From assembly GCA_013911165.1 (NCBI GenBank), contig JACETR010000003.1:170-64169 (forward strand): a stretch of 64,000 bases of DNA. The letters run 5' to 3'. Positions 6,170 to 43,500 of the stretch are shown here, piece by piece. The notes beneath the pieces are model-generated. The model worked only from the letters and a program-made list of their open reading frames with translations, had not been told where the DNA came from and ran no database searches. This DNA comes from Planctomycetota bacterium (GTDB lineage Bacteria; Planctomycetota; UBA8108; UBA1146). Position 1 is the stretch's first letter, and every line of letters starts with the position of its first letter. Position numbers and translations under genes: made by a program.

Positions 6170-8614
6170 ATGTGGGCACGAAGATTCCCGGTGGTTCTGG
6201 CCAGTTTCCTGGGAGCCATGTTGTGGGCCGCAATTCCCTCATTTGCCCAGTCAGGCAATGAGGCCTGTTCCTCTCCCGGAATCACTTTTGGTGGAGAGAC
6301 GGGGACTCCCGTTTCGATTTCCGATTCGATCCAGATCAACGACAGCCTGATCATCGAAGACTTGCACGTTCGGGTGGACATTAGCCACGGCTTTGTTGCC
6401 GATCTGCTCGTCGATCTGAATTCGCCAACGGGCACCACTCTCCGGCTTCATGACGGCCTGGGAGGAGACCTCGATGATCTGCGGGTCATCTTCAGCGATG
6501 ACGGGGTGGCCAACGGGGCGGTGACCTATGACTTCGGCTGTTACATGCAGCCATCGAACGGACTCCTGAGTGTCTTCAGCGGTCAGAATACCCAGGGGGT
6601 GTGGACCCTGAATGTGGAGGATGATTTTCCTGCCAACAGTGATGGAGTCCTCAACAGCTGGTGCCTGCGATTCTTCAACTCGCCCGTCTCGGTTTTGCCG
6701 GCTGTGCAAAACTTTGCCTGCACTCCCACTCAGGACGGGGCCGTGCTCTCCTGGGATAACCCCCAGCCCTTCGGTTCCATCGAACTGACGGTCAACGGAA
6801 CAGTCCTGTCATTACCGGGAAGTACGACGACCCACACCCTCAATGGAGTTGCACCGGGAACCCTGTTGGAAATCTCTGTTGTGGGTGCAGTGGCACCTCC
6901 CGGTCAATCGGTTTCCTGTGCGGAAGTCTGTGCGGTGACCACCCTGAATGGCCCCCCGACCCAGGTGGCGGTGACCATCGACGAACAGTACGACGACTGG
7001 AGTGGTGTCATACCTCTACAGGACCCGATCGGGGATGCGGTTCCCGGCGGCCACGATCTGCTGTCCCTTTCCGTGGCCGATGATGACGAGTCCCTGTTTC
7101 TTCGTTTCGATTTTGCCGGGCCGGAAGTGCAGCTTGATGAAGGGGACACACTGATTCTCTACATCGATACCGATGCCAATCCCAACACGGGGCTGGCCAT
7201 CTCCGGGATCGGTGCCGAAGTGGAATGGGATTTTGGGGCCAGGCAGGGAACCGTGAGATCCGGGGGAGCGACCTTTCCGATCAGCCATGCGGATGTGGGC
7301 CTCGTCGCCGCACCCACCGTCTCGGGAACCCAGTTTGAAATCAGTCTTCGCAGAAACTCGCCACTGATCTCACTGGGATCGGAAGTTCGGGTGCTGTTGT
7401 GTGACGACCGACCCGGGGGAGATTGTCTTCCCGATTCAGGTGGGCTCTTTCACCCGCTGGCTCTGGGCCAATTACCTCCGGATGCCGAGATTCCCCTGAC
7501 CCGGGAGCAGGCATCCGATCTGCGGGTCGTGAGTTACAACGTTCTCACCGATAACCCGTGGCAGGGGCAGGGGAATCGGATCGGCCGACAGTTGGCGGCG
7601 GTGGCAGCGGATATCTACTGTTTTCAGGAGATCTACAATCACACACCGGCTGAAACCGCCTCTTATGTGAGTTCATGGGTGAGCCCCAGCGGCGGTGGGA
7701 ACTGGTTCAGTGCCGGTCAGTCCGACTGCATCTTTGTCAGCCGCTTCCCGATTCTGCAGACCTGGGCCCTGTCGGGGAACAGTGCGGCATGGATCGATAC
7801 CTCCAGTGAGTGGGGGGTACCGACGATGGTGATCAACGCCCACCTTCCCTGCTGTGCCAATGAATCGGGCCGGCAGAACGAATGTGATCAGATTGCCGCG
7901 TTTATTCGTGATCAGCGCCTGGCAGGGCTGCTTTCGACCCACCCGGAGGCGGCGGTGCTGATTGTGGGGGATATGAACTTTGTCGGCGAATCCCGTCAGC
8001 GGACGACCCTGTTGACCGGGGACATTCTCGACGAGACCCAATGGGGCTGGGACTACCCCATGGATGCAGATGGATCCGATCTCATCGATACCAAATCGCG
8101 CCATGTCGCCCGACGTCAAATCTACACCTGGCGCAACGACAACGGCAGTTACTCCCCCGGTTATCTGGATTACATCATCTATTCCGATTCGGTTCTGGAG
8201 CTGGGGCGCCATTATGTGCTTCTGACCGATGAGATGTCGAACAGCTCACTCGTGCAGAATGGACTGCAGTTTGATGATTCGAACGGGTCAGATCATCTGC
8301 TGGTGGTGGCGGATTTCCGCCCTCTGGCAGCTGATACGCTGTTTCGTCGGGGAGACTGCAACGCTGACGGGTCTCTCAATATTTCCGATGCGGTCGCTTC
8401 TCTGCTCACCCTCTTTGGCGGCGGAGCTCCTCCCAGTTGTCAGGATTCCTGCGATGCGAATGACGATGGCACCCTGGATGTGTCGGATCCGGTGACGCTG
8501 CTGGGAATGCTCTTCTCAGGTTTTGGCGATCTGCCCGCACCGGGACCGCAGAACTGTGGGGCCGATCCCACCAGTGATGCACTGGACTGCTCCACCTTCA
8601 GCGGTTGTCCCTGA
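6170..8614 (+). CDS. Secreted multidomain protein: proprotein-convertase P-domain, Ig/Fn3-like region, endonuclease/exonuclease/phosphatase (EEP) domain and C-terminal dockerin-like module
   Basis: ORF 6122..8614, with the start moved to ATG 6170 (MWARRFPVVLASFLGAMLWAAIPSFAQ signal peptide). P-domain pattern: IEDLHVRVDISHGFVADLLVDLNSPTGTTLRLHD...GVWTLNVEDDFPANSDGVLNSWCLRF. EEP motifs: LRVVSYNVL, CFQEI, GDMNF, SDHLLVVADF. The dockerin-like tail starts at FRRGDCNADGSLNISD. Confidence 0.85.
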   Translation: MWARRFPVVLASFLGAMLWAAIPSFAQSGNEACSSPGITFGGETGTPVSISDSIQINDSLIIEDLHVRVDISHGFVADLLVDLNSPTGTTLRLHDGLGGDLDDLRVIFSDDGVANGAVTYDFGCYMQPSNGLLSVFSGQNTQGVWTLNVEDDFPANSDGVLNSWCLRFFNSPVSVLPAVQNFACTPTQDGAVLSWDNPQPFGSIELTVNGTVLSLPGSTTTHTLNGVAPGTLLEISVVGAVAPPGQSVSCAEVCAVTTLNGPPTQVAVTIDEQYDDWSGVIPLQDPIGDAVPGGHDLLSLSVADDDESLFLRFDFAGPEVQLDEGDTLILYIDTDANPNTGLAISGIGAEVEWDFGARQGTVRSGGATFPISHADVGLVAAPTVSGTQFEISLRRNSPLISLGSEVRVLLCDDRPGGDCLPDSGGLFHPLALGQLPPDAEIPLTREQASDLRVVSYNVLTDNPWQGQGNRIGRQLAAVAADIYCFQEIYNHTPAETASYVSSWVSPSGGGNWFSAGQSDCIFVSRFPILQTWALSGNSAAWIDTSSEWGVPTMVINAHLPCCANESGRQNECDQIAAFIRDQRLAGLLSTHPEAAVLIVGDMNFVGESRQRTTLLTGDILDETQWGWDYPMDADGSDLIDTKSRHVARRQIYTWRNDNGSYSPGYLDYIIYSDSVLELGRHYVLLTDEMSNSSLVQNGLQFDDSNGSDHLLVVADFRPLAADTLFRRGDCNADGSLNISDAVASLLTLFGGGAPPSCQDSCDANDDGTLDVSDPVTLLGMLFSGFGDLPAPGPQNCGADPTSDALDCSTFSGCP
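8342..8611 (+). other. Dockerin-like module with Cys-rich tail (on the EEP protein)
   Basis: FRRGDCNADGSLNISDAVASLLTLF...SCQDSCDANDDGTLDVSDPVTLLGMLF...NCGADPTSDALDCSTFSGCP-stop. This is two EF-hand-like DxNxDG loops, each followed by a helix, then a conserved Cys tail. Confidence 0.7.
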
Positions 8615-8620
8615 TCGAGA

Positions 8621-9364: not shown

Positions 9365-9399
9365 GTTCTGAAGCTTCCTGTGAAGAGGAGCGAAAAATG

Positions 9400-9473
9400 C
9401 GTCCCCGGCAGGATTCGAACCTGCGACCTTCGGATTAGGAATCCGATGCTCTATCCAGCTGAGCTACGGGGAC
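9400..9473 (-). tRNA. tRNA-Arg (anticodon CCT)
   Basis: The reverse complement reads GTCCCCGTAGCTCAGCTGGATAGAGCATCGGATTCCTAATCCGAAGGTCGCAGGTTCGAATCCTGCCGGGGACG. The 7-bp acceptor stem is GTCCCCG/CGGGGAC. The anticodon stem is TCGGA/TCCGA with loop TTCCTAA. A GGTTCGAATCC T-loop is present. CCA is not encoded. Confidence 0.9.
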
Positions 9474-9602
9474 AGCCTGAATCATGACTAACCATCACAA
9501 CCTGACCCGGGAGCGTATCGCCTTTGTCGAGATGGGTCGAGACGAACGGTAATTCATCTGCCAAATGCGACCGTTGTCGCAAAGGGTTCGATCCACGCCA
9601 TA

Positions 9603-9652
9603 TTGACAACGGCTCTTCTCTCATTGTCAAAAACTAACTAAATCAATACATT
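9603..9652 (+). promoter_or_regulatory. Inverted repeat TTGACAA-N14-TTGTCAA overlapping a possible sigma70-like promoter (TTGTCA-N17-TACATT) upstream of giant gene 1
   Basis: ttgacaa (9603-9609) and ttgtcaa (9624-9630) are exact reverse complements. TTGTCA (9624-9629), a 17-nt spacer and TACATT (9647-9652) lie in an AT-rich stretch ~55 nt upstream of the ATG at 9705. Promoter rules for this lineage are uncertain. Confidence 0.25.
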
Positions 9653-9704
9653 TAGTGGATCGGGAGAACTATAAAACTCTTCAATTTAATGGGGGAGAGA
9701 CCCA

Positions 9705-12700
9705 ATGAAGATCTTTTCTGTAACGACATCCTGTGTCGTATCTAGCCACGCCGCTTTCAAACGGCTCGGCCTTGTATTCATGTTTGTATTTGTTTCCCTG
9801 GGAATGTCAGGCACTCCACTGACGGCGCAGAACTGCGAAACAGGTTCTGAGACGTTGGCTGCCTCGGCAACCCATGTCGACAACTCCGGTTCATGGCTGG
9901 TTCGTGGTCAGGGCAGTGAGGTCGAGCTGTTACTCGAAGATCAGGGGAGTTGGACAAGCTTCCAGACTCTTGATCTGGGATTGCAGACTCTTCACTCGCT
10001 GGATCTGGATGGAACCTTGCTTGCCATCGGCCTGGGCAATGAGGTCCGCATCCTCAGTTATGACGGTTCCAGCTGGGTCGAGGAGTTTACTTTCGGACCT
10101 GCTGATCCCGCCTCGAGTTTCGGTCACAGCGTTGCCTTGTCCGGAAACCGACTGGCTGTGGGAGATCCAAACAACAATACGATCACTTTCTACACGCGAC
10201 TCTTTACCAGTGGGCAGGCTGCTTCCTGGTTCACGAGTTCCACAAATATAGGATCTCCCGGGGGAACTCTGGGAGATGAGCTGGAAATGGTGGACGGTTA
10301 CCTTGCCGCTGCGGACAGATCACTGGGTTCCATCGAGGTCTTTGTTCCGGTGGGAAGCCCATCTTTGGAATGGGAGGCTGATTCCAGTCTGACTCTGTCG
10401 AATGTTTCCGGATTCAGCCTCCATTCTTCAGGAGCTCATCTGGATCTTTTGGTTCCTTCTGCTTCCGGTGCACAAATTTATCGTCGTGCTGGAGCAGGTT
10501 GGGACCTGCAGAGTGATTTGTCTTTCACTGCAGGAGCCCGGCAGTACAGCGTTCTCTCCGCTGACAAGGCCGTCGTGACTACGGACTGTGGTCTGAGACT
10601 CTACTCGCAGGAAGCGGGCGTATGGGATTCAGGTGTTGAACTTCGCACACTCGATGCTGCTGTGGCTTGTATGGATTTGCATGGAGCACTGGACGATTCT
10701 CCGTTGGCCTTCGGTGACGCGGGAATTTACCTGAGCACCGCCTCCGACTTGCGTCTGATTTCCGGGTTGACCTACGCCGATTGTAATGGAAACGGATTGC
10801 CCGATTCCTGTGATCTGGCTGCCGGAACTCCGGACTGTAATGGCAATGGAATACCAGATAGTTGCGACTTCGCCAATGGTGACCAGGATTGCAACTCGAA
10901 TGGTGTGATCGACGTTTGTGAGATCAATAACGGATTTGCTGAAGACTGTAACGGAAACCAGATTCCGGATACCTGCGACGCAATCAATGGCGTTCAGTTT
11001 GATACGCTTCCTCCGGTGATCGCCGGTGTCCCGGAAAATCAGGAGATCCTCCTGAACCCGGGTGTTTGTGCAGCGATTGCTGATTGGGTGGAGCCGACCG
11101 CGTCCGATATTTGCAGCAACGCCACCATCTCTTCAGATGTGGCATTGGGTTCCGAGTTGTTCCCGGGTGTCAATACGATCACCTTCACAGCCGAGGATGA
11201 TCACGGCAACCAGTCCACCGCCAGTTTCACTGTGACGGTGAGTGAAAACATCCCGCCTGTTCTTGCCCAACTTCCGTCCATACCGGATTTTGATGCGGAT
11301 CCCCAGACCTGCACTGCTATTGTCACCTGGGATGAGCCTACAGCCTCCGATATCTGTTCTGACGTGACAGTGACTTCGAGTCATCCGAATGGCTCGGAAT
11401 TCCCACTCGGAGAGACACTTGTGGTCTTCACCGCAACAGATGTCAGCGGAAATACCGATATTGACGGATTCATCGTTCGTGTTGTCGACAACTCTGCTCC
11501 CTCGATCGAGCAGTTGCCCAACATTGAAGTTTCGGCTCCCGCAACAGCTTGTAATGCCACTGTCGACTGGATCGACCCAGTGGTTTCCGATTGCACCGGT
11601 GGGGTGACCCTTACACAGAACTTTGTGCAGCCTCTTGTCGGGTTGCCAGGCGTCAGGAATGTGACCTACACGGCAACCGATGCCAATGGACTGTCATCCA
11701 CGATGACTTTCACTGTCAACATTCTTGATGACACTCCGCCGACTCTGGTGGGTCTGCCTGCGGATATGATTCTTAACACTGACCCGGGTGCCTGTGGTGC
11801 TACGGTTATTTGGGATCCGCCGACCGTGGTCGATAACTGCGATCTTGAACTGGAGCCTGTCAGTAACTTCGATCCTCCCTCCACCTTCGGTGTGGGTGTG
11901 ACGACCGTGGTTTACACGGCCATCGACCCTTCCGGTAACGAGAGGGTGGGTTCATTCACGGTGACCGTGAATGACCTGGATATCCCTGTCTTCGTCAGTA
12001 CCCCTGGACCGGTCTCTGCAGCGACCAGCACAACAGATTGCTCCGAGCCAGTGACCTGGAATCCGCCGTTAGCCGTCGACTGCTCCGCCAACCTCACCTA
12101 CACCGCTTCTCATGATCCGGGAACCCCATTCCCGTTGGGAACCACGGATGTCACTTACGAGGTTTCTGATCTTTCTGGCTTCTCGTCGACGATTACTTTC
12201 CCTGTGACAGTGACCGATGGTTTCGGTCCGGAATTCCAGGGAGTGCCTGCAGACATCACTCAAGCGGTGACTCCGGGCGAGTGCAGTTCTCTGGTGACGT
12301 GGATCGAGCCGACAGCCACTGATTCCTGTGGAACTTCAACGATCAGTGGTTCCCATGCACCGGATACCGTCTTCCCTGTTGGTGTGACTCCGGTGACATA
12401 CACGGCGATCGATGACAGTGGCAATGTCAGCACCGCGACCTTCAATGTGACCGTGACCGATGGAAATGCACCAGCATTCAGTTCGGTGGTGACCGATCAA
12501 AGTGCCGCTGCTGCCATTGGAATCTGCCAGGCCCAGATTTTCTGGGATGAGCCTACAGCCACTGACGACTGTGCAGATGTTGTCATCACATCGTCCCATG
12601 CTTCCGGATCATTCTTTGACAAGGGAGTCACGACGGTGACGTACACCGCTTCCGATGGTGGTGGTGAAGTGGACCAGTTCTCATTCAACGTGACCGTGAC

Positions 12701-15700
12701 CGACGTGGAGGCTCCGAGTCTGCTCAATATGCCTGCAGATATCACTGTGGGTAATGTTCCGGGTGCTTGTGCCAACACTGTCTTCTGGTTGACTCCGACT
12801 GCATTCGATCATTGCGAGCCGGTCGGATTTGCCGCAAGTCATGTCCCGGGAACCAGCTTCCCGGTCGGTCAGACCGAGGTGACTTACACCTCTACAGATT
12901 CTTCCGGAAACACAGCAAGCGCCAGCTTCATGATTCTCGTGGAGGATCGGGATGCCCCGACCTTTGTCGATACACTGCCGAGTTTGACGACGGTGATCGA
13001 TCCGGGAACATGCGGAGCAGTGGTAACCTGGGCCGAGCCTTTGGCGTTGGATGCTTGTGATGCAGAATTGACCATCACTTCCAATCACCAGTCAGGTGAC
13101 ATCTTCCCGGTGGGAAGCACTCTGGTGACCTACACTGCTACCGACGATTTCAATAACTCTACAAGCCTCTTCTTCAATGTGGTCGTGGAGGACAACGAAG
13201 GTCCCACGATTGTCGGGATTCCGCAGAGTTTCACTGCTGGAGTCGATGAAGGTGTTTGTGGTGCAACGGTGACATGGCAGGAGCCAGCACCTCTGGATTG
13301 CCAGTCGATGACAGTCCAAAAGAGCCATGATAATCCAGCCTTCCTTCCTCTGGGTGACACAACGGTGACTTACATCGTCACCGACGCCAGTGGAAATGCG
13401 ACCACGGATTCATTTGTGATCACGGTTGTGGACGATCGTGCTCCGACATTCACGGCATTCCCTGAAAATATCTCGGTCTCGAATGATCAGGGAACCTGTG
13501 AGGCAACCGTGACCTGGGAGCCACTGCAGACGAGTGACCCCTGTTCAACTTCCTCATTCACCTTGAGTCATGAATCAGGATCCGTCTTCCCCCAAGGGGT
13601 GACGACAGTTACAGCGACCGCAACAGACCTTTCCGGTAACAGCCGTCAACAGAGCTTTACCGTCAGCGTTCTTGATACCGAGGCTCCAGTTCTTCTGGAA
13701 GCCCCTTCTGACCCGGTTTTCGTGGGTAACAGCACTCAAGAGTGTGATGCTGTCGCAAACTGGACCGTTCCTTCCTTCATCGACAACTGTGGTGGAGCAG
13801 TCACGGTCACTTCCAATCACCAGCCCGGTGATATCTTCCCGGTGGGAGAAACTCTTGTGAGTTACTCCGCTCTGGATGCGGACCTGAATGAGACGAACCA
13901 CAGTTTCACGGTGATCGTTCTCGACACCACTGATCCGACGGTGGAACAGCTGCCTGAACCGGTACATGTTTCAACGCCGATCGATTCTTGCACTGCCATC
14001 GTCACTTGGCCTGAGCCCGTTGCGACCGATTGTGGTCAGGTTACGGCTACCAGTGACTTTGCCAACGGTGCAGAGTTGGGGATCGGATCCCATATCATTA
14101 CGTACACCTTCTCGGATGATTCCGGAAACAGCACGATGGGTTCTTTCCTCGTCGTTGTTTCTGATGGCGAGAATCCGACGATCTCGAATATGCCTCAGGA
14201 TGTGACGGTGACAAATACCACCTCCATGTGTGGGGTGAACGTGATTTGGAGTGAACCCTCGACCAGTGACTGCTCCTTCAGCAGCATGACTGCCAGTCAC
14301 TCTCCGGGAGACTTGTTCTCCACGGGTGTGACGGAGGTTCAGTACACCTCAATCGATACCGAGGGTAACCAGTCGACAGCCAGCTTCCTGGTCACAGTCC
14401 TGGATGGTGAAAGTCCGCAGATCACTAATATGCCCACCGATATCACGGTGACCGCAGATCTGGGATCTTGTCAGGCAGCAGCCACTTGGGGCGACCCGCA
14501 GGCCATCGACTGTGTGTCTGCTGAATTGGCCTCCTCGCATCTTTCCGGAAGCCTTTTCGATATCGGTACGACTGAAGTGATCTACACAGCCACCGATACT
14601 GCAGGAAACTCCTCGCAAGCCTCATTCCACGTGACAGTGATCGATCAGGAAGCACCGCAAATCGCAAACATGCCGGATACGGTGATCGTCCAAAACAGCC
14701 CGGGCCTGTGCACCGGTGTGGCCACCTGGTCTGCACCGAGTGGAACCGACTGTTCCGGAATCGCCTCCATCACGCCCTCGATTTCTTCGGGGTCCGAGTT
14801 CCCGGTGGGAACCACCACTGTGTTCTACAGCGTGATTGACAACAGTGGTCTTGAGTCCGTAGCCAGTTTCCTCGTTGAGGTTCAGGACACAGAAGCGCCG
14901 ACAATCCTCAATCTGCCTGGAACGGTAACGGTTTCCAACATCGCTGGTAACTGCTCTGGCCCGGCAACCTGGGAGACTCCTTCCACCGAAGATTGCTCGG
15001 GTTCTTTCATCACTTCTGACTACAACAGCGGGCAAATGTTTGCGCTGGGAAGCACCACCGTTACCTACACGGCAATGGATGAATGGGGCAATAGCAGTCA
15101 GTCCAGCTTTGAGGTGATTGTTGAGGATACGGAATCACCCTTCTTCACCAATCTTCCGGCGACGATGACCTTCTCAAGTACTTTGGGTACCTGTGAGGGA
15201 TTGGCAACATGGCCGATGCCCACGGCGGCGGATCTCTGTAGCGCAGCTGCAGACGTCACCGTTACTTCCAGCCACGATTCTGGATCTGTGTTTGCTATCG
15301 GAGATCACACAGTGGTCTTCACCGCAACGGATGCCAGCGGCAATGAACATGCACAGTTGGTGACGATCAGCATTGTCGATATCGAGCCGCCGACGATCAG
15401 CGACATGCCTGCAGACCTTGTGGGAACAGCGTTGATCGGCGAGTGCGGAGTACCGATGTCCTGGAATCCGCCTGTGACCTCAGACTGTTCGGATGTCACT
15501 CTCACCAGCACATTCAGTTCCGGTGACCTGATTCCGATCGGCTTGAATACCATTACCTATACAGCGACCGACAGCGCTGGAAACTCTTCCAGTGCCTCGT
15601 TCTTCATTAACGTTGCTGATGCCGAAGCGCCGACCATCAGCAACTTGCCCGAAAATGTGATTTTGACCAATGACTTCGATTCCTGTGGAGCAATCCATTC

Positions 15701-16634
15701 ATGGGTTGAGCCGACCATCGAGGACTGCAGTGATCTGATGCCCATCAGTATTTCTCACAGCAGTGGTTCTTTCTTTGAGCCGGGTATCACTGAAGTCTCT
15801 TACTCTGCGACCGATTTCTATGGAAACAGCACAACACAGAGTTTCACGGTCAATGTTGTTGACAAGGATGGTCCCCAGTTCCTGAACGTGGTTTCCTACG
15901 TTGAGTTGAACAACTATCCCGGTCTTTGCGGTGCAAATGCGTTCTGGCCAGAGCCGACGGTGGTCGACAACTGTGAAGTATCCAGTCTGCAGTCCACCGT
16001 TGAGCAGGGCGATTTCCTGCCGTTGGGTGAAACAGTGGTCAACTACGTGGCCATCGACAGTGAAGGCAACGCCAACACGACCTCGATCACGATCAATGTC
16101 ATTGATAATGAAGCTCCGCAGGTGATCAACCTTCCGGCTCACATCTTCGCCGAGCCGGATCCGTCAACCTGCACTGCGATCGTGACCTGGCAGACTCCGG
16201 AAATCTCTGACAACTGTGACGGTGGTACGATTACCAGCTCGCATGAATCGGGAACAGAGTTCGAGGTGGGAACGCACACCGTGACCGTCATCGCTACTGA
16301 CGCAGTTGGATTTGTGACGGAGGTCAGCTTCCAGATCACGGTCAATGAGTGCGGAGTGTCCTTCATTCGCGGTGACACCAACAATGACGGTGCCTTCGAC
16401 ATCTCTGACGCGATTGGAATCCTCCAGTACATCTTTGGCGGGGCCATGACCGATCCGACCTGTCTCGATTCACTGGATGAGAATGACGATGGCATGATCT
16501 CGATTGCGGATGCGATTTACCACTTCTCCCACCTCTTCTCGGGTGGTCCTGCTCCGGCAGCACCTTTCGACAGTTGTGGAGTCGACATGACGGCTGATGA
16601 TCTGGGTTGCGAGAGCTACGGCGTCTGCCCCTGA
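9705..16634 (+). CDS. Giant secreted adhesin-like protein 1 (2,309 aa): FG-GAP-like region, 4 Cys-bracketed Ca-loop repeats, 22 HYR modules and a dockerin-like C-terminus
   Basis: Single uninterrupted ORF. GGGGGAGAG lies 5 nt upstream of the ATG. The N-terminus is hydrophobic and signal-like. FG-GAP-like strings occur (FGHSVALSGNRLAVGDPNNN). I counted 22 copies of the HYR core C-x-A-x-V-x-W-x-x-P-x-x-x-D-x-C ... G-x-x-F-P-x-G-x-T-x-V-x-Y-x-x-x-D-x-x-G-N. The tail begins FIRGDTNNDG. Confidence 0.95.
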   Translation: MKIFSVTTSCVVSSHAAFKRLGLVFMFVFVSLGMSGTPLTAQNCETGSETLAASATHVDNSGSWLVRGQGSEVELLLEDQGSWTSFQTLDLGLQTLHSLDLDGTLLAIGLGNEVRILSYDGSSWVEEFTFGPADPASSFGHSVALSGNRLAVGDPNNNTITFYTRLFTSGQAASWFTSSTNIGSPGGTLGDELEMVDGYLAAADRSLGSIEVFVPVGSPSLEWEADSSLTLSNVSGFSLHSSGAHLDLLVPSASGAQIYRRAGAGWDLQSDLSFTAGARQYSVLSADKAVVTTDCGLRLYSQEAGVWDSGVELRTLDAAVACMDLHGALDDSPLAFGDAGIYLSTASDLRLISGLTYADCNGNGLPDSCDLAAGTPDCNGNGIPDSCDFANGDQDCNSNGVIDVCEINNGFAEDCNGNQIPDTCDAINGVQFDTLPPVIAGVPENQEILLNPGVCAAIADWVEPTASDICSNATISSDVALGSELFPGVNTITFTAEDDHGNQSTASFTVTVSENIPPVLAQLPSIPDFDADPQTCTAIVTWDEPTASDICSDVTVTSSHPNGSEFPLGETLVVFTATDVSGNTDIDGFIVRVVDNSAPSIEQLPNIEVSAPATACNATVDWIDPVVSDCTGGVTLTQNFVQPLVGLPGVRNVTYTATDANGLSSTMTFTVNILDDTPPTLVGLPADMILNTDPGACGATVIWDPPTVVDNCDLELEPVSNFDPPSTFGVGVTTVVYTAIDPSGNERVGSFTVTVNDLDIPVFVSTPGPVSAATSTTDCSEPVTWNPPLAVDCSANLTYTASHDPGTPFPLGTTDVTYEVSDLSGFSSTITFPVTVTDGFGPEFQGVPADITQAVTPGECSSLVTWIEPTATDSCGTSTISGSHAPDTVFPVGVTPVTYTAIDDSGNVSTATFNVTVTDGNAPAFSSVVTDQSAAAAIGICQAQIFWDEPTATDDCADVVITSSHASGSFFDKGVTTVTYTASDGGGEVDQFSFNVTVTDVEAPSLLNMPADITVGNVPGACANTVFWLTPTAFDHCEPVGFAASHVPGTSFPVGQTEVTYTSTDSSGNTASASFMILVEDRDAPTFVDTLPSLTTVIDPGTCGAVVTWAEPLALDACDAELTITSNHQSGDIFPVGSTLVTYTATDDFNNSTSLFFNVVVEDNEGPTIVGIPQSFTAGVDEGVCGATVTWQEPAPLDCQSMTVQKSHDNPAFLPLGDTTVTYIVTDASGNATTDSFVITVVDDRAPTFTAFPENISVSNDQGTCEATVTWEPLQTSDPCSTSSFTLSHESGSVFPQGVTTVTATATDLSGNSRQQSFTVSVLDTEAPVLLEAPSDPVFVGNSTQECDAVANWTVPSFIDNCGGAVTVTSNHQPGDIFPVGETLVSYSALDADLNETNHSFTVIVLDTTDPTVEQLPEPVHVSTPIDSCTAIVTWPEPVATDCGQVTATSDFANGAELGIGSHIITYTFSDDSGNSTMGSFLVVVSDGENPTISNMPQDVTVTNTTSMCGVNVIWSEPSTSDCSFSSMTASHSPGDLFSTGVTEVQYTSIDTEGNQSTASFLVTVLDGESPQITNMPTDITVTADLGSCQAAATWGDPQAIDCVSAELASSHLSGSLFDIGTTEVIYTATDTAGNSSQASFHVTVIDQEAPQIANMPDTVIVQNSPGLCTGVATWSAPSGTDCSGIASITPSISSGSEFPVGTTTVFYSVIDNSGLESVASFLVEVQDTEAPTILNLPGTVTVSNIAGNCSGPATWETPSTEDCSGSFITSDYNSGQMFALGSTTVTYTAMDEWGNSSQSSFEVIVEDTESPFFTNLPATMTFSSTLGTCEGLATWPMPTAADLCSAAADVTVTSSHDSGSVFAIGDHTVVFTATDASGNEHAQLVTISIVDIEPPTISDMPADLVGTALIGECGVPMSWNPPVTSDCSDVTLTSTFSSGDLIPIGLNTITYTATDSAGNSSSASFFINVADAEAPTISNLPENVILTNDFDSCGAIHSWVEPTIEDCSDLMPISISHSSGSFFEPGITEVSYSATDFYGNSTTQSFTVNVVDKDGPQFLNVVSYVELNNYPGLCGANAFWPEPTVVDNCEVSSLQSTVEQGDFLPLGETVVNYVAIDSEGNANTTSITINVIDNEAPQVINLPAHIFAEPDPSTCTAIVTWQTPEISDNCDGGTITSSHESGTEFEVGTHTVTVIATDAVGFVTEVSFQITVNECGVSFIRGDTNNDGAFDISDAIGILQYIFGGAMTDPTCLDSLDENDDGMISIADAIYHFSHLFSGGPAPAAPFDSCGVDMTADDLGCESYGVCP
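10779..11000 (+). repeat. 4 tandem 18-19-aa Cys-bracketed EF-hand-like loops (DCNGNGxPDxCD)
   Basis: DCNGNGLPDSCDLAAGTP / DCNGNGIPDSCDFANGDQ / DCNSNGVIDVCEINNGFAE / DCNGNQIPDTCDAINGVQF, read in frame. Confidence 0.85.
11001..16350 (+). repeat. Array of 22 HYR (hyalin-repeat) modules, ~81 aa / 243 nt each
   Basis: Hand count of the C..W..P...D.C cores, from CAAIADWVEPTASDICSN to CTAIVTWQTPEISDNCDG. The array length divided by 243 nt gives about 22. Confidence 0.85.
16362..16631 (+). other. Dockerin-like module with Cys-rich tail (giant 1)
   Basis: FIRGDTNNDGAFDISDAIGILQYIF...PTCLDSLDENDDGMISIADAIYHFSHLF...SCGVDMTADDLGCESYGVCP-stop. Confidence 0.75.
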
Positions 16635-16655
16635 TCAATGCTGAAATCTGGATTT

Positions 16656-16694
16656 GCGGCTCCGATGGGATTCCCATCGGAGCCGCATTTTTTT
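16656..16694 (+). terminator. Rho-independent terminator after giant gene 1
   Basis: The stem gcggctccgatggg (16656-16669) pairs with cccatcggagccgc (16673-16686) across a 3-nt loop. It is followed by ATTTTTTT (16687-16694). Confidence 0.85.
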
Positions 16695-16754
16695 GATCGA
16701 AGTCTCCATCTCCTCGTTTAATCTGCATGCTCCTTAATCTGCTGATCCGGAGGA

Positions 16755-20156: not shown

Positions 20157-20795
20157 TGGGTTGACTTCGTTAACAAACTGGTTTACAAACATTGGTGTCC
20201 CAAAGACCCAATTTTCCCGAGTTGGGCCTTTCATTGCTTTGGACACTCTTGGGAACAGTCGTGGCCATCTATTGAATCTCTTCCGGGTCCCTCACTCCTC
20301 ACTCCACTTAACCCGGGAGTGGTGTTCTTTGTCATGACTGTTCCCAAGGGTAATAATCCCGCCAGTTAAGCCTTGTCTGTCGGGAAAGGCAGGTCTGGCA
20401 ACTTTCTCGTCGGGTGGTTGGCAAGGACCGATAAGTCGATACAATCAGAGTTGCTCGGGCTCGAGAATTTGATCAAAAGGAGGACACTTTGCGGGTTTCC
20501 GTTATGGGAACTTTCCCGTGTCATTCTAAGGTCGATTGGGGCTTTCCCAGACGGTCGAGAGCCTCGAGGAGGTGGGAAGGTGTGCGTCGTGGAGACTTCC
20601 GGTCCCCCGGCGTGCACTTCATTTTCTTCCCGCCAGGTGTGGACAGGTATAGATGCTGAAAACATGAACCCTGTGAGCGATTTATCCGACGAGGTGTGTC
20701 GGTGCGGTTTATCAGGGTCTGGAAAAACAAGACAACTTTAATGGGGTGTGTCGGGGCGACAAGCCCTGGAGTGAGACCGAAAGGAACACACGATT

Positions 20796-22043
20796 ATGCT
20801 TCGATCGATGATGATCATGCTGACCATTGCAATGGCAGTTTCTTTTGTGCCTGCAGTTGCTATTGCGGGCGGTAGTGCATTTCAGTTCAGCCTGACTGGC
20901 GGTGCCGGTGCAGCAGGTGACAGCTTCACCTCTTCTGCGCTTTTGGACAATGCCGGTGGTGGAGACGTTCAGGGTTGGTCCTTCGGTGTCTGCAGTGACC
21001 CTGCAGCCCTGACCGTAGACGGAGCCGCCAGCGGTGCCGACACGGAGACCGCCAAGAACGGATCTGCTCCTGACTTCAACCAGATCAGTACTTTTGCTGA
21101 CGGTGCCACCCAGGGTGTGGTTCTCTGCTTCACCGGCTGTGCCGTGATCGGAGACACCTCCGGTTTCGAGATGCTGACGATCGATTACACGATCGCCGGT
21201 TCCTCTGACACCACCATCGACTACTGCGGAACTCTGGGAGCTCCCCCGGTGAACACCGTGGTCGTGGTTGGCGGAGCCAGCCTTGCTCCCGCCACCAGTG
21301 GTGGATTGATCGACGTGATCAACCCGAACCAGTTGAGCGCCTCCAGTGGAACCGCCGTCCTCGGTGACGCCGCTTCCACCACCGTGAGCTTCAACAACGT
21401 CAACTACCCGGCCATCGACGCCGTCCAGATTAACCTCGGATACGACAACACCGTCGTTTCTGCGGCTTCTGTCGACGCCGATTTCGCCTTCGAGACCTTC
21501 CTGGTTCAGGACTTCACCGGCAATGGTGGTGAGATTGTGGTTGGCGGCCTTGCCGACATCACTCCTCCTCTGGACGGACTGATTCCGGCCGGTGCCTCCA
21601 CCGACCTCTTCACCGTGACCTGGAACACCGACGCCGAGGGTACCTCCGCCATGACCTTCCCGGCCACCGCCGGTAGCCCGGCTCAGGATCTTCTCTTCGT
21701 TGCTGGTCAGTCCAGCCTGGAGACCCCGACCCTGATCGACGGTTCCCTGACCGTGGTGAACTTCAACCAGTTCCTGCGTTCCGACTGCAACAGTGACGGA
21801 ACCGTCAACATTGCGGACGGTGTTTACGGTATCAACTACCTCTTCCAGGGTGGTGCTGATCCGGTCTGTGACGACGCCTGTGACTCCAATGACGACGGTG
21901 CCATCGACGCCGCCGACATGATCTACATCTTCAACTACCGCTTCCTTGAGGGCCCGGCTCCGCTGGCACCCTTCCCGAGTGCGGACCTCGACCCGACCCC
22001 GGGCGACGGACTGGGATGTGACGGCGACGCCGACGATCTGTAG
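20796..22043 (+). CDS. Secreted protein with two cohesin-like beta-sandwich modules (tentative) and a C-terminal dockerin-like module
   Basis: 415-aa ORF with signal peptide MLRSMMIMLTIAMAVSFVPAVAIAGG. Cohesin-like core strings are DVQGWSFGVCSDPAALTV...VVLCF...FEMLTIDYTI and IDAVQINLGYDNTVVSAASV...LFTVTWNT. The tail is FLRSDCNSDGTVNIADGVYGINYLF...VCDDACDSNDDGAIDAADMIYIFNYRF. The CDS call is solid; the cohesin assignment needs HMM or structure confirmation. Confidence 0.6.
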   Translation: MLRSMMIMLTIAMAVSFVPAVAIAGGSAFQFSLTGGAGAAGDSFTSSALLDNAGGGDVQGWSFGVCSDPAALTVDGAASGADTETAKNGSAPDFNQISTFADGATQGVVLCFTGCAVIGDTSGFEMLTIDYTIAGSSDTTIDYCGTLGAPPVNTVVVVGGASLAPATSGGLIDVINPNQLSASSGTAVLGDAASTTVSFNNVNYPAIDAVQINLGYDNTVVSAASVDADFAFETFLVQDFTGNGGEIVVGGLADITPPLDGLIPAGASTDLFTVTWNTDAEGTSAMTFPATAGSPAQDLLFVAGQSSLETPTLIDGSLTVVNFNQFLRSDCNSDGTVNIADGVYGINYLFQGGADPVCDDACDSNDDGAIDAADMIYIFNYRFLEGPAPLAPFPSADLDPTPGDGLGCDGDADDL

Positions 22044-22067
22044 AAATCACTGATTTCGAAACAAGAA

Positions 22068-22100
22068 GGCCGCTCGATCGATGATCGAGCGGCCTTTTTT
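22068..22100 (+). terminator. Rho-independent terminator after the cohesin-like gene (may also serve convergent hemL)
   Basis: ggccgctcgatc (22068-22079), loop gat, gatcgagcggcc (22083-22094), then TTTTTT (22095-22100). Confidence 0.85.
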
Positions 22101-23449: not shown

Positions 23450-23640
23450 CGTGCTCTCCCTGCTGTCAATTTCCGGAAGTATATCCGCCACCGCTTCGAG
23501 GGGTACCCACACTACGGAGGCAGAGAGTAAAGAAGCAAGAGCACAGCGGTCCTCCCGCTCCTGAAATCTGTACGTTAAAGAGTGGCAACTACCTCTGGTT
23601 CGGGGGGGTGGATACGATGTGCGGGCGAAACGGAGTTGAA

Positions 23641-37536: not shown

Positions 37537-40500
37537 ATGAAGACGTCTCCCCTCGCCTTCCTGGTGTTTGTGATTCACCTTGTTGCGGTCACCACTTTTG
37601 TGGGTGCCCAGTGCGACCCTGTTGTCGACTGCAACGGGAATGGAGTCTTGGACAGTTGCGATATCGCTGATCACAACAGCGACGATTGCGACGGTGATGG
37701 CATTCCTGATGAGTGCCAGATCAGCTCTGACCCGAGCCTGGACTGTAACCAGGATCTGATCCTCGATGCCTGCGAGAGCAGCCTCGAGCAGATCCTGAAT
37801 GGTTCTGGATCGGATTATGGCAAGGGCCTGGACATGACGTCCAACTGGCTCGCCATAGGAGCACCGGATCATTCGACCGGAGGGAACTCCGTCGGCGCTG
37901 TCCATCTTTACCGCAATATCGGTAGTAGCTGGGTTTCTGCAGGAATGCTGCAGGCGCCATCTCTCTCTGCTGGAGCAGAGTTCGGCTACAGCGTTGCGAT
38001 CACGGATGACCTTCTCGTGATTGGTGCACCGGGGACCGACAGCAGCGGTAACTCTGACGAGGGTGCCGCCTACATCTACCGCAGAAGTGGCCTGAACTGG
38101 ATTCTTGAACAGGTTCTTGAGCCTGCAGGAAGCAACAGTGACGCCGAGTTTGGTATCTCCGTTGCTGTCGACGGCGAGCGTGTGGCTGTCGGTGCATGGT
38201 ACGCATTGACCACCAGTGATTCCGGCAGTGTCTACCTCTACAGCAATGACGGAAACGGTTGGAACCTCGACCAGTTGATCGAATCCCCCGATTCCAGTGG
38301 AGACAAGCACTTCGGATCCTCCATTGAGCTTTCTGGCGATTTTGTTGCCGTTTCCGATCCGCGTGCGGATGCCGGGCCGGTCGATGACGCTGGTGCTGTC
38401 TACATCTACAGAGCATTTAATGCGAGCCTCTGGGCGTTTTCACAGAAGATCACCTCTTCTTCGCCTGTCGATGGCGGCAAGTTTGGTTACTCCATCGATT
38501 TGCAGGATGGCCAGCTTTTTGTGGGTGCTCCCAACAGTGGATCTGATGCCCGGGGAGAGGCGCATCTGTTCACTCTTGGCGGCAGCATCTTCAGTTTCGA
38601 GATTGTTTTCACCGGTCTTTCCTCCAACTCAAACCTTGGACAGGACGTGGCAGTTGCCGACGGTGGCCTTGCTGCCGGTGCCTGGAAAGCCAATGGAAAT
38701 CTGGGGCAAGTCCTCGTTTTCCAGAAAGACGCCAACGGAACTTACCAGTTTGAGTCCTTTGATCCCCAGGGAGCACAGAGCGGAGACCGCTTTGGTGAGC
38801 GTGTTGCCGCGGGTGGACGTTGGATTGCCGGAGCCAGTTTGGTCGATTCATACGTGGCTCTCGATCGACTGATCGATCTGCCCGACTGTGATGAAAACGG
38901 TGTCGACGATCCCTGTGACATTTTCCTCGGTAATTCCCAGGACTGTAATCAGGACGGTAAGCCTGATTCCTGCCAGATTGCTGATGGAGAAGTCTCCGAC
39001 TGCAATCTGGACGGGATTCCCGATTCCTGCCAGTTGGATGACGGCTCTGAGCCGGACTGCAACCTCAACGGTGTGATCGACTCCTGCGATATCGACTTTG
39101 GAACCTCTGACGACTGTAACCACAACCAGATTCCCGACGATTGTGAATCTGACTGTAACCAGAACGACATCGAGGACAGTTGCGAAATCGCAGCAGGAAC
39201 CGCTGCGGACTGTAACTCCAACGGACTTCTCGACGCGTGTGATTTGATTGCTGGAACCGATACGGACTGCAACAACAACTCGATTCTTGACGGTTGTGAA
39301 ATTGCCGACGGCAACGCCACGGACTGTGATGAAAATGGAATTCTGGACGTTTGCGATATCCTGCTGGATTTCAACAACGACTGTAACTCCAACCAGATCC
39401 TCGACTCCTGCGAGATCGCCAACGGCACGGCCTTTGACTGTAACAACAACAGCAAGCCGGATATCTGCGACGTTGCATTCGGTATTTCACCGGATTGTGA
39501 CAATGACCTGATTCCCGACGAGTGCGAGTTGCAGGATGGCAGTGAGCCGGACTGTAACGGCAACAACATTCCCGACTCCTGCGATATTCTTGCGGGAATC
39601 GAGCAGGACTGTGAAGGAAACGGTATCCCGGACACCTGTGATGTTGCCAATGGTGCTCTGGACTGTAATGAAAACAATGTCCCCGACGTTTGCGAAGTGG
39701 ATGTTGATACCCAGCTGCCGACCTTCGAAGGCCTGAGTGGTGACCTTTCCATCAGTGCTCTCGAGGGAAGCTGCGAAGCACCGGCAACTTGGTCTGAGCC
39801 GACTGTCACGGATGATTGTGGCGTCGATTCTGTCATCAGCAGTCACACCTCCGGAGATTCCTTCCCGGTGGGCGACACTCTGGTGACCTACACGGCCACC
39901 GATGTGAGCGGCAACGTGAACACGGCCTCCTTTACGGTGACCATCACCGATGATCAGTTGCCTTCCATTGCCAACGGCCCCACGGACATCTCTGTCTCTA
40001 ACGATGCCGGCACGTGTCAGGCTGTGGTGAGCTGGGATGAGCCGAGCGCCGCAGACAACTGTGGAATCGCTGATCTTTCCAGCAACCATTCCGCCACCGA
40101 TTCTTTCCCTGTGGGAACGACCACGGTGACCTACACCGCAACCGATGTGAATGGCAACCAGACGACCCATTCCTTCAACGTCACTGTTTCTGACGACGAT
40201 CTTCCGGCGATCCACGGACTGCCCGGACCCGTCTTTGTGAACAGTAACCCCGGGTTCTGTACCGCAGCAGTCAGCTGGCCGGCACCGACCTTCTCCGACA
40301 ACTGTGACGATGTCACCGTCGAGGTGAATTATCAGTCCGGTTCCGCATTCACGGTGGGTGTCACCCTGGTGACCTACACCGTCACCGACGCAGCCGGAAA
40401 CATTGCGGAGGCCTCCTTCGAGTTGACCGTTCTGGATAACGAACTGCCGACCATCACCAATGTTCCGGCAGATGTGGTCCTCAACAATGATGAGGATCTC

Positions 40501-43500
40501 TGTGGTGCTGCCTACGTTTGGGAAGAGCCTGCTCTTTCCGACAACTGCGGTGCACCGGCGCTGACCTCCAGCCTCCAGTCGGGACACGTCTTCCCCGTTG
40601 GAACGACCTTCGTCAGCCTGACCGTGGATGACGGAAACTCCAACCTTGTAGAGACCGGATTCACCGTCACCGTTGTCGACAACACCTCTCCCCTGATCTC
40701 CAGAATGCCCACTGATATCGTCATCGAGGCTGATCAGGGTGGCTGTGACACTCTCGTCGAGTGGGAAGAGCCAGAGGCTGCCGACAACTGCGGAGTTTCG
40801 ACCCTCGTCGCCAACAATGTCCCGGGAATTTACGCCGTCGGAACCACGGAAGTGGTCTACACGGCTCAGGATATTCACGGCAACATCACCCTTGAGTCCT
40901 TCACTGTGACCGTGGTCGACAGTCAGTCTCCGGAGCTTTCCGGTCTGCCCGTTGATCTTTCCACCGACAACCTGTTGGGTCTTTGTGGCGCAAACCTCGC
41001 CTGGCCTGAGCCGAGTGCCGCAGACAACTGTGGAGTGGAAAGCATCGAATCCACCCATTCCCCGGGTGACGAGTTCCCTGTGGGAATCACGACCGTCATT
41101 TACACGGTGACCGATATCAACGGTAACGTAACCAATGAGTCGTTCCAGGTGACCATTCACGACGTGGACGCCCCTGAGATCGACAACATGCCCGCCGACA
41201 TCACCACGACCAATGACGAAGGTGACTGTGGCGCACTGGTCAGCTGGACTGAGCCGGTGGCATGGGATAACTGTGAAGTGATCGAACTTGTCTCGAGCCA
41301 TGAGAATGGCGGATTCTTCCCGGTGGGCACCACTGAGGTGACCTACACCGCGAAAGATGACTCCGATCTGGAGTACAGCGAGTCCTTCCTGATCACCGTT
41401 TCCGACGACGAAGCCCCGGTCCTGATTGGACTGGCCGAGCAAGTGACCTACAGCAACGTTGAAGGTCTTTGCAGTGGTTTGGCCACCTGGGACCTCCCCA
41501 GTGCCAGTGACAACTGTGAAGTCAGTGAGATCACTTCAACCCACGAGCCGGGTTGGTCCTTCAATGTTGGAAGCACCCTGGTGACCTACACTGTGACCGA
41601 TATCCACGGCAACTCTTCTCAGGAAGTTCTGATCGTGGTCATCGAAGACACCGAAGCACCGACTTTCGTCAGTGTGCCGGATGACATTCAGGCCACCACT
41701 GAGCCTGGAATCTGCACGACGATCGTCAACTGGGATATCCCGGTTGTTGACGACAACTGTGAGATCTTCAGCCTTTCGACCAGCAACCTTCGCGGAACCG
41801 AGTTTGGTGTCGGTGTGACCACCGTCACTTACACGGCCACCGACATTCACGGAAACTCCACCGATCACAGCTTCGTGATTACCGTTTCCGACGACGAAAT
41901 GCCGGTGATCGACCCTGTTCCGGAGATTATCGAGGTCAACACCGATCCTGGACAGTGCAACGCCATCGTTCACTGGGAAGATGCGTTCGCCACCGACAAC
42001 TGTGGAATCCTCAGTTACGAGGCGAGCCACGAGTCCGGTGACCTCTTCGAGCTGGGAACGACGACCGTGACCCTGACCACCATGGACATCCACTTCAACG
42101 TCACCACTGAGACCTTCGACGTTGTTGTGACCGATGCCGAGGCGGCCGAGTTCACTTCCTTCCCCGATGACATTCAGCTGATCGCCGAGCCGGGACTGTG
42201 CTCTGCCATGGCCGATTGGGATGCTGCCACTGCTTCCGACAACTGTGGTGTGGCGAGTATCGTCTCTGATCGTCAGCCCGGAGAGCACTTCGATGTGGGT
42301 ACCACTGAAGTGACCTTCACCCTGACCGACGTCAACGGCAATGTGACCGAGGATTCGATTCTGATCACCGTGGAAGACCTCGAGCTTCCTGTGATCACCA
42401 ATCTTCCCGATCGCATCACCGTGGGAACCGAACCTGGAATCTGTCTTGGAACCACTTCCTGGACGACTCCGGATGTTTCTGACAACTGTGCTGTCGACAC
42501 TCTCGTTGCCAGTGTGGAGAGCGGAACGATGTTGCCGATCGGTGAAACCGCCGTGACCTACACCGTGACCGATATCCACGGAAACTCCAGCAGCCAGAGC
42601 TTCATCGTGACTGTTCAAGACCAGGAGCTTCCGCAGATCATCAACATTCCTGCCGACATCACCCAGACCAACGATACCGGTGCCTGTGGCGCGGTCATCA
42701 TGTGGGATGCTGCTGACGCCCTCGACAACTGTGAGGTTGCCGACCTTCAGAGCAGCCACAACAGCGGAGATTTCTTCCCCGTTGGAACCACGACGGTGAC
42801 TCTGACAGCGACCGACACCACCGGAAACAGTCACTCTGAGACCTTCGAGGTCACCGTCACCGACGATGAGAATCCGATTCTCTCCGGTGTTTCCGGCGAC
42901 CTTGTCAGCGACAGCGACGCCGGTGAGTGCGGAGCGATCGTGTCCTGGGCCGATCCGACCGCCACCGACAACTGCGGTGATTTGACCCTGACCTCCAACC
43001 ACAACCCGGGAGATTTCTTCCCGGTGGGTACCACAGTCGTGACCTACGTGGCAGTGGACCAGTACGGCAACGCCACGACCCAGCATTACTCGGTGACGGT
43101 GAACGACGTCGAGGATCCGCAAATCAGTGGCATGCCTGCGGACATCCAGCAGAACACTGATCCGGGCATCTGTGGTGCCGTGATTGAGTGGACTCTTCCG
43201 CAGTCCTCCGACAACTGTGACGTGCTTTCCCTGACTTCGGATTACCAGTCAGGTGAGACTTTCCCCGAGGGAACCACCACGGTGACCTACACGGTGGAAG
43301 ATATTCACGGCAACAGCAGTAGTGCCAGTTTCCAGATCACCATCAGCGATGCCGAGGCTCCGGAGTTCACCTCCGTGCCCGCACCGATCTCCGTCAACAA
43401 TGACCTTGGAGATTGTGGAGCGATCGTCGAGTGGAGTGCACCGCAGGCACAGGACAACTGTGACGTTGCGGGAATCACCCTGAGCCATCAGTCCGGAGAC

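Follow-up and report, generated by a model that had tools for sequence, protein, structure and literature searches.

Cohesin and dockerin modules have been described in several settings outside cellulosomes. Andrei et al. (2019; PMC6461901) proposed an in silico "planctosome" for freshwater Nemodlikiaceae, in which cohesins and dockerins are combined with HYR domains, proprotein-convertase P-domains, thrombospondin type 3 (TSP3) repeats, and peptidases. Its parts include a 2,210-amino-acid (aa) lamin-tail-domain anchor with a single cohesin, an adaptor with the order dockerin-HYR-cohesin, and M12B/M14 peptidase cargo; the term occurs in just six papers, which contain no experimental follow-up. 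Dockerin_1 is enriched in the huge proteins of planctomycetes (PMC11573180, 2024), for which a cohesin partner was not named. In anaerobic methanotrophic (ANME) archaea and Cloacimonadota, extracellular proteins rich in cohesins and dockerins and with non-cellulolytic passengers were suggested to tether functional proteins to the outside of the cell (PMC9012536, PMC8542988). As related in PMC9012536 (references 167 and 168 therein), archaeal non-cellulosomal pairs bind specifically by experiment, and papers citing Peer et al. (2009) describe non-cellulosomal modules of both kinds as widespread. Here, we analyzed a 64,000-nucleotide stretch of DNA from contig JACETR010000003.1 of a Planctomycetota assembly (the window, to which coordinates refer unless a locus is named) and focused on its gene at 20796..22043, which encodes a protein of 415 aa. 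The host is an uncultured planktonic marine planctomycete (Tara Oceans and TMED-type metagenome-assembled genomes, MAGs).

Judged by sequence profiles and structure models, the 415-aa protein begins with a signal peptide, continues with two cohesin-fold modules, and ends in a dockerin. We propose that it belongs to a non-cellulolytic cohesin-dockerin system as an adaptor-scaffoldin-like unit, the cohesins of which would bind dockerin tails in a Ca2+-dependent manner and thereby build an extracellular or surface network. We place the probability of this reading at roughly 60%.

Like the planctosome, the proposed system is planctomycete and non-cellulolytic, with HYR domains, a P-domain, Ca-binding Cys/Asp repeats, and a dockerin-tagged enzyme, and both are purely in silico. 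An earlier annotation made from the letters of the window (the sequence-only reading) knew of no described coupling of such modules to giant HYR proteins. That view does not hold, as the idea is already contained in the planctosome and Dockerin_1-bearing giants were reported in PMC11573180. The three complete giants of the window are of the latter kind, though just one exceeds 4,500 aa. The differences from the planctosome lie in the distribution of the parts: here, the cohesins are on small proteins of two modules plus a dockerin that are encoded in multigene arrays, the HYR domains are on tail-only giants of 2,300 to 4,500 aa, the enzyme is of the EEP type, and the lineage is marine. No lamin-tail domain, peptidase, or HYR-cohesin fusion of the planctosome type was found in the window or in the loci scanned.

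One protein of Archaeoglobus fulgidus bears both a cohesin and a dockerin. This organism is likewise non-cellulolytic, and its cohesin (2xdh) is among the fold matches given below, whereas the archaeal system has one or two genes, no array expansion, and no giant cargo. The ANME and Cloacimonadota systems differ in phylum and in their passengers (substrate-binding proteins, S-layer domains, and peptidases or glycoside hydrolases). Cloacimonadota also have a classical 3,755-aa multicohesin scaffoldin with a C-terminal anchor domain of the type IX secretion system, in contrast to the many small cohesin-dockerin units found here, for which no anchor was found. The literature searched contains no description of a family with one to five cohesins plus a dockerin, of an obligate socket-plus-plug architecture, of its tandem arrays, or of a disulfide-stapled dockerin subtype.

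Cohesin-fold modules of the 415-aa protein

The gene starts with ATG and is divided as follows.

20796..22043, + strand: gene encoding the secreted, adaptor-scaffoldin-like protein of 415 aa, which has two cohesin modules and a single dockerin (open reading frame [ORF], Pfam, AlphaFold2 [AF2], Foldseek)
20796..20867, + strand: Sec-type signal peptide, aa 1-24, cleavage between AIA and GG (read from sequence)
20880..21323, + strand: cohesin-like module 1, aa 29-176, with invariant Cys66 and Cys144 (family profile against PDB, alignment of homologs)
21324..21761, + strand: cohesin-like module 2, aa 177-322 (Pfam, PDB profile, Foldseek)
21762..22040, + strand: type-I-like dockerin tail, aa 323-415, with a Pro-rich extension (Pfam, PDB profile)

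The sequence-only reading had described a signal peptide, two beta-rich modules, and a duplicated Ca-loop segment; the ORF, the AF2 model, and the loops agree with this description, and all of the cohesin-core strings that it quoted occur in the translation. Inspection of the signal peptide revealed no lipobox Cys, and the AF2 model places a helix of low predicted local distance difference test score (pLDDT) at aa 2-16 within it. A comparable hydrophobic N terminus was recognized heuristically in 198 of 224 complete family members. Beyond the signal peptide, Pfam detected cohesins and a dockerin only, which bears out the earlier statement that the scaffold candidate has no anchor module; an NCBIfam scan gave nothing meaningful (MinC alone, at E = 0.036). 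The AF2 model, built on an alignment of 65 homologs, had a mean pLDDT of 88.9, with values of >90 across both all-beta modules. Its predicted template modeling score (pTM) of 0.62 is uninformative on docking of the tail onto the protein's own cohesins. The mature protein (20868-22040) contains 50 Asp and Glu residues versus 3 Lys and Arg residues (net charge, -47).

Sequence profiles and the predicted fold both assign the modules to the cohesins. Searched with the whole protein, Pfam Cohesin (PF00963) scored 30.2 bits over two stretches (cutoff, 24.1; E = 5.8e-7), the best of which (aa 188-233) is inside module 2. When a profile of the 65 homologs was compared with all PDB sequences, 20 of 20 matches were cellulosomal cohesins or dockerins; module 1 matched the ScaC cohesin 5lxv_A (E = 5.8e-4), and module 2 matched the ScaB cohesin dyad 3l8q_A over aa 180-298 (E = 2e-4). 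The same dyad was the top Foldseek match in the PDB (E = 1.5e-11; 355 to 363 aligned columns). Dozens of single cohesins followed at target-normalized template modeling (TM) scores of 0.75 to 0.81 and root mean square deviations (rmsd) of 2.3 to 3.0 Å, with the non-cellulosomal Archaeoglobus cohesin 2xdh at rank 50 (TM 0.77), while multi-Ig proteins in the same list (integrins, AgI/II adhesins) reached TM scores of just 0.13 to 0.33. The sequence-only reading would have been abandoned had neither module given a significant profile or structural match to cohesins, and these results uphold its cohesin assignment.

The single-domain Foldseek matches carry no query range, and for this reason the assignment of both modules leans also on their mutual homology. 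A hidden Markov model (HMM) of module 2 detected module 1 at E = 1.5e-16, and HHalign aligned the two with a probability of 99.6% (E = 2e-24); pairwise BLAST between them was not significant, so that the duplication is visible by profile methods only. By these comparisons, the modules are ancient duplicates of one another, and both are assigned to the cohesin fold on profile and model evidence. Module 1 has a short helix between strands 4 and 5, away from the helix position of type II cohesins, which is too thin a basis for typing.

The best profile and fold matches thus come from adaptor scaffoldins, namely Ruminococcus flavefaciens ScaC (5lxv) and the Acetivibrio cellulolyticus dyad (3l8q). 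These are similarly secreted, noncatalytic proteins with one or a few cohesins and one dockerin; a variable module number and a type-I-like dockerin with internal two-fold symmetry are further likenesses. Unlike them, the planctomycete family has no cellulolytic cargo, no carbohydrate-binding module (CBM), and no partner anchored by an S-layer homology (SLH) domain or sortase, and its host is a Gram-negative-type planctomycete. Its cohesins are mostly missed by Pfam, its dockerin is extended by a Pro-rich stretch and contains conserved Cys pairs, every complete cohesin protein carries a dockerin, and binding is predicted here.

Dockerin tails on giant proteins and an enzyme

HMM searches of the window detected exactly five tails and one cohesin-bearing protein. 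The other tail-bearing proteins, and a giant whose end is not included, are listed below.

6170..8614, + strand: secreted enzyme with a proprotein-convertase P-domain (P_proprotein, 48.5 bits), an EEP nuclease/phosphatase domain (Exo_endo_phos, 43.5 bits), and a dockerin tail at 8330-8611 with all three Cys pairs (tail HMM, E = 8.5e-19)
9705..16634, + strand: 2,309-aa HYR giant with 22 HYR stretches (Pfam) and a dockerin tail at 16350-16631 (tail HMM, E = 1.4e-22)
37537..47964, + strand: 3,475-aa FG-GAP and HYR giant with 32 HYR stretches (Pfam) and a dockerin tail at 47683-47961 (AF2 and Foldseek of the tail)
48111..61667, + strand: 4,518-aa FG-GAP and HYR giant with 40 HYR stretches (Pfam) and a dockerin tail at 61383-61664 (tail HMM, E = 6.2e-27)
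62147..64000, + strand: first 618 aa of a fourth giant paralog (32% identity over ~600 aa to the giant at 37537, E = 3e-82), with its C terminus beyond the window end

The earlier claim that four other secreted proteins end in dockerin-like modules was confirmed: a tail HMM built from homologs of the 415-aa protein only matched the four tails over ~85 residues at E = 1e-19 to 1e-27, and the starts at 6170, 37537, and 48111 are ATG codons. The paralog said to be cut off by the window end is a true giant paralog; its tail lies outside the window. On this profile evidence, a single tail family of ~90 aa ends the 415-aa protein, the three HYR giants, and the EEP enzyme.

Dockerin_1 (PF00404) scored 26 bits on the whole 415-aa protein (cutoff, 22.9; E = 1.1e-5), in agreement with the earlier reading of its C-terminal segment as a dockerin. 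Among the isolated tails, those of the 415-aa protein (29.3 bits) and the giant at 37537 (27.2 bits) exceeded the cutoff, and those of the giant at 9705 (21.0 bits), the EEP enzyme (17.7 bits), and the giant at 48111 (16.2 bits) were below it, although these three are homologous over their full length to the two that pass. In the PDB profile search, the tail of the 415-aa protein matched dockerins (e.g., 2y3n_B, E = 1.3e-4). Its two Ca loops, DCNSDGTVNIAD (aa 330-341) and DSNDDGAIDAAD (aa 363-374), are both canonical 12-residue loops followed by a helix, and its Cys pairs are 331/362 and 358/408. Conservation was scored at the dockerin Ca2+ loop positions (Asp or Asn at 1, 3, 5, 9, and 12 of a 12-residue loop, then a helix) across 292 tails from related genomes. 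These positions were D (84%), N (91%), D (92%), N or D (99%), and D (100%) in loop 1 and D (97%), N (90%), D (90%), D or N (84%), and D (100%) in loop 2.

An AF2 model of the tail of the giant at 37537 (pLDDT, 87.3; pTM, 0.80) likewise has a helix after each loop. Its top 32 Foldseek matches in the PDB were all dockerins, mostly type I (target TM, 0.75 to 0.86; rmsd, 1.3 to 2.3 Å; 22 to 32% identity), and type II X-dockerin entries scored poorly. The two dockerin halves are identical at 10 of 21 positions, as in symmetric type I dockerins. Taken by HMM, Ca-loop motif, and modeled fold, the tails are dockerins. Outside the dockerin core, they share a signature of near-invariant F5, R7, Cys37, and Cys86 and a G-P-x-P-x-A-P-F-P extension. 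Tail Cys residues co-occur in pairs (10-41, 37-86, and 75-92), which implies up to three disulfide staples.

In ~95% of cases, no more than 10 residues separate the tail from the stop codon, and the tail contains no transmembrane helix or sortase-type motif. It is sometimes internal (a copy in P0293) or followed by a further domain (P0054/P0068 and L045) and therefore acts as a domain rather than as a terminal signal. The tail is widespread in databases, where NCBI names some tail proteins "dockerin type I"; a tail-profile search for cargo returned mostly short C-terminal fragments, and the cargo seen was limited to PKD, HYR, and FG-GAP. The tail passengers include HYR, FG-GAP, PKD, EEP, Big_5/TIG, NHL, and choice-of-anchor I domains.

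The giants share two further features. Their Asp plus Glu and Lys plus Arg contents are 294 and 25 (9705-16634), 575 and 31 (37537-47964), and 696 and 47 (48111-61667); Lys and Arg are nearly missing from them and from the mature 415-aa protein, all of which are extremely acidic. Cys/Asp-rich repeats that fit the pattern C-[ND]-x-[ND]-G-x-x-D-x-C-[DE] are present in 3, 8, 18, and 10 copies in the four giants, at 37537-38000, 48111-48600, and 62147-64000 and near the C termini of the giants, flanking the HYR arrays and immediately before the dockerin tails. These repeats look like thrombospondin-type-3 Ca-binding repeats, with no Pfam report at E < 0.01.

A cohesin-like family in marine Planctomycetota

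The 415-aa protein is present unchanged on Tara Oceans contigs and in the MAG GCA_045565955.1, and its homologs are all annotated as "hypothetical proteins" in MAGs of marine Planctomycetota. When species-representative genomes were scanned, 295 related stretches were detected, from which 80 loci were analyzed; these include the window itself and four contigs carrying its 415-aa protein, and only part of each genome is visible in them. They contain 240 ORFs with one to three cohesin-like modules, of which 233 also bear the tail, the remainder being truncated or frameshifted. Each genome has at least 10 to 15 cohesin-like genes with 19 to 27 modules, and the species of the window has at least 10 such genes with at least 19 modules. 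When 1.84 billion representatives were searched exhaustively, with modules 1 and 2 without the tail as the query, 691 representative clusters were detected, 317 of them at E <= 1e-10. The tail was present in 136 of the best 150 database representatives, and the other 14 were fragments or frameshifts. Neither the 80 loci nor the best 150 representatives contained a complete cohesin-like protein without a tail. The module number ranges from 1 to 5 across relatives, as in scaffoldins.

Most genes for cohesin-like proteins with tails are in same-strand tandem arrays of 5 to 10 that are conserved across genomes and also include tail-only proteins. In one five-gene cluster (L028-L043, ~5600-13800 of each locus), a tail-only protein of 730 to 750 aa (736 aa) with no Pfam match and the tail end GPDPTFLDxIxC comes first, followed by four cohesin-like and tail genes of ~665, 455, 480, and 300 aa, the third of which is more closely related to the window gene than any other paralog. 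A second, larger type of array is closed by a 1,700-aa Big_5/FG-GAP/TIG and dockerin protein. In two genomes, a large array begins ~1 kb past rplQ and has the same orientation as the L15-SecY-Adk-Map-S13-S11-S4-RpoA-L17 operon. This position after a ribosomal-protein operon may hint at high expression.

L080 (JAAZXB010000002.1), 8058-20792: rplQ-proximal array; no array gene with a precomputed Pfam match
L081, 8052-21284: rplQ-proximal array; no array gene with a precomputed Pfam match

Larger relatives reach four or five modules and carry additional domains. P0288 (1,676 aa) has a choice-of-anchor I domain (312 bits) alongside five cohesin-like modules and a tail; a lamin-tail-domain motif suspected in it had no Pfam support. 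In P0293 (847 aa), one tail follows the first module and a second is at the C terminus, and P0322 includes a Laminin_G_3 domain. In the subfamily of P0054/P0068 (565 aa) and L045 7317-9017, a domain of ~170 aa with C-x-x-C-H, a possible heme c site, and with no Pfam family stands behind the tail; a gene of this subfamily adjoins a plain 432-aa paralog in TMED181 (CBD41_08280, CBD41_08285). Orthologs at 47 to 61% identity also occur in L025 (JAFMMO01, labeled Proteobacteria) and in L042 and L060 (QNYK01, labeled Bacillota). The Planctomycetota synteny block described below is present in L025 and L042 as well, and the phylum labels of these bins are probably wrong.

Predicted pairing, alternatives, and gene neighborhood

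If the modules function as their folds suggest, the cohesins would, once exported, bind the dockerin tails in a Ca2+-dependent manner, with the 415-aa protein as a bivalent adaptor. Since each unit has one to five sockets and one plug, units could join each other as well as tail-only cargo (giant adhesin-like proteins and enzymes), and the outcome would be a protein network outside the cell or on its surface. Archaeal non-cellulosomal pairs bind, which is a precedent for pairing in the planctomycete system. What speaks for a system is that the tail is shared and that the cohesin-like family is co-expanded; the 64-kb neighborhood is not part of this evidence. The sequence-only reading took the 415-aa protein as a scaffold for its neighbors within the window, and this has no genetic support: the gene looks monocistronic, housekeeping genes lie between the tail-bearing genes, gene order is collinear across the clade, and each genome has at least 10 paralogs. 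The neighborhood includes the following features.

9400-9473, - strand: tRNA gene just upstream of the 2,309-aa giant (Rfam, 74.2 bits)
16755-20156, + strand: gene for a 1,133-aa protein with DUF7133, GSDH-like, HEAT, and C-terminal cytochrome c domains, between the 2,309-aa giant and the 415-aa protein (Pfam)
20329..20445, + strand: pair of sigma-70-like promoter matches within the 640-bp spacer before the gene (consensus scan, 2 found versus 0.6 expected; weak)
22063..22099, strand not assigned: bidirectional intrinsic terminator with a 17-bp stem and 9 GC pairs, between the gene and the convergent hemL (sequence)

The genes between the tail-bearing genes are katG, a heme-biosynthesis cluster, GGT, PEPCK, and the gene for the DUF7133/HEAT/cytochrome c protein. 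Interspersed among the giants, at 3551-5773 (-), 22133-23512 (-), and 31524-37041 (+), are katG and the heme set (hemL, glutamyl-tRNA reductase, porphobilinogen deaminase, HemD, URO-D, and a protoporphyrinogen-oxidase-like flavoprotein). The DUF7133/GSDH-like/HEAT/cytochrome c protein has no evident link to the cohesin and dockerin proteins, and its position is kept in ~20 genomes. The Rfam scan of the window gave no match besides the tRNA gene. The block order giant, DUF7133/HEAT/cytochrome c gene, scaffold gene, hemL, GGT, further genes, and PEPCK is conserved in ~20 genomes. Synteny was considered as evidence for coupling of the 415-aa protein to the giant and was rejected, because the block is kept whole, housekeeping genes included.

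Several observations weigh against Ca2+-dependent pairing of these modules. The adjacency of the gene to an HYR giant reflects general collinearity and is no sign of a dedicated partnership, since the conserved block includes housekeeping genes; as far as the DNA indicates, the gene looks monocistronic, with no co-transcription with a tail-bearing partner. Both proposed partners are very acidic, with a net charge of -14 to -16 for each module and -17 for the tail. On isolated modules, Pfam Cohesin remained below its cutoff (module 1, 14.3 bits; module 2, 19.9 bits, E = 9e-4). A precomputed Pfam Cohesin match is present in just 14 of 102 homologs and in none of the array paralogs; Pfam thus misses most paralogs, and the binding surface may therefore have diverged. 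No anchored cohesin protein without a tail (SLH, sortase, lipobox, or transmembrane helix) was found in the 80 loci or the best 150 representatives, so that a root for the assembly is missing. Finally, we infer the pairing itself from sequences and models.

A more far-reaching version of the proposal is tentative and, in our view, has well under an even chance of being correct. In it, the family with one to five cohesins plus a dockerin would be the missing cohesin partner of the planctomycete dockerin-tagged giants. With a plug on every socket-bearing protein and no anchored root, units would self-assemble head to tail into a branched, Ca2+-dependent lattice that would form a protein surface layer or matrix, with its genes beside the ribosomal-protein operon and with HYR giants and enzymes plugged in.

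The alternative that survives best dispenses with cohesin-dockerin pairing. The tail would be a general surface-anchoring or export tag, stabilized by Ca2+ and stapled by disulfides, that binds glycan, peptidoglycan, or a non-cohesin receptor, and the cohesin modules would be mere passengers with another ligand or a structural role. The position of the tail near the stop codon fits such a tag, as do the highly diverse passengers, including choice-of-anchor I, a family whose name refers to the varied C-terminal anchors that accompany it. Cohesin-like proteins bear the tail as all others do, an anchored scaffoldin without a tail was not found, both proposed partners are strongly acidic, and F5, R7, Cys37-Cys86, and the GPxPxAPFP extension are foreign to classical dockerins. 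However, the tail is not always terminal (it is internal in P0293 and has a domain behind it in P0054/P0068 and L045), and it lacks a transmembrane helix or sortase-type motif. Moreover, in fold and Ca loops it matches bona fide type I dockerins that bind cohesins, and the same genomes show a parallel expansion of a large cohesin-fold family, as expected of a dockerin partner. On balance, we consider the tag explanation unlikely, though a serious competitor.

Spurious resemblance, in which a generic beta-sandwich and EF-hand-like acidic loops mimic the two module types, is very improbable. The subthreshold Pfam scores of the isolated modules, the lack of BLAST similarity between them, and the multi-Ig proteins in the Foldseek list would fit it. 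Against this, the whole-protein Pfam scores exceed the curated cutoffs, the 65-homolog profile matched only cohesins and dockerins in the PDB, single cohesins far outscored Ig-type folds, the tail model matched dockerins in 32 of 32 cases, and the Ca-loop positions are 84 to 100% conserved. A canonical plant-cell-wall-degrading cellulosome with its enzymes outside the window, suggested by best sequence and fold matches that are all cellulosomal, is scarcely credible for a planktonic marine host with HYR/FG-GAP giants and an EEP enzyme as cargo, no SLH or sortase anchor found, and no glycoside hydrolase, carbohydrate esterase, polysaccharide lyase, or CBM on tail- or cohesin-bearing proteins in the window, the 80 loci, or the larger relatives. 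The other window ORFs scanned also contained no glycoside hydrolase or CBM, as the sequence-only reading had stated; the dockerin-borne carbohydrate-active enzymes and scaffoldin CBM that define a cellulosome were found neither there nor on the cohesin- and tail-bearing proteins, and a cell-tied anchoring scaffoldin was found neither in the 80 loci nor in the 150 representatives, which cover partial genomes. Both of these explanations are effectively excluded.

In Planctomycetota, many giant surface proteins end in dockerins for which a cohesin partner or an assembly logic has not yet been shown. The cohesin-like family provides a concrete candidate partner in the form of small, soluble, disulfide-stabilised modules. 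A cellulosome specialist would not be astonished by such a family; the possible gain is a partner for the dockerin-tagged giants and perhaps a self-assembling cohesin-dockerin lattice. If binding were refuted, the tail would be a candidate new C-terminal surface-anchoring tag of the phylum. If binding is true, the highly acidic, seawater-adapted modules would offer an orthogonal cohesin-dockerin toolbox for synthetic biology, cohesin-dockerin chemistry would reach beyond enzyme scaffolding to adhesin networks and even self-polymerising layers, and the system would show how the cell surface of abundant, uncultured marine planctomycetes is built.

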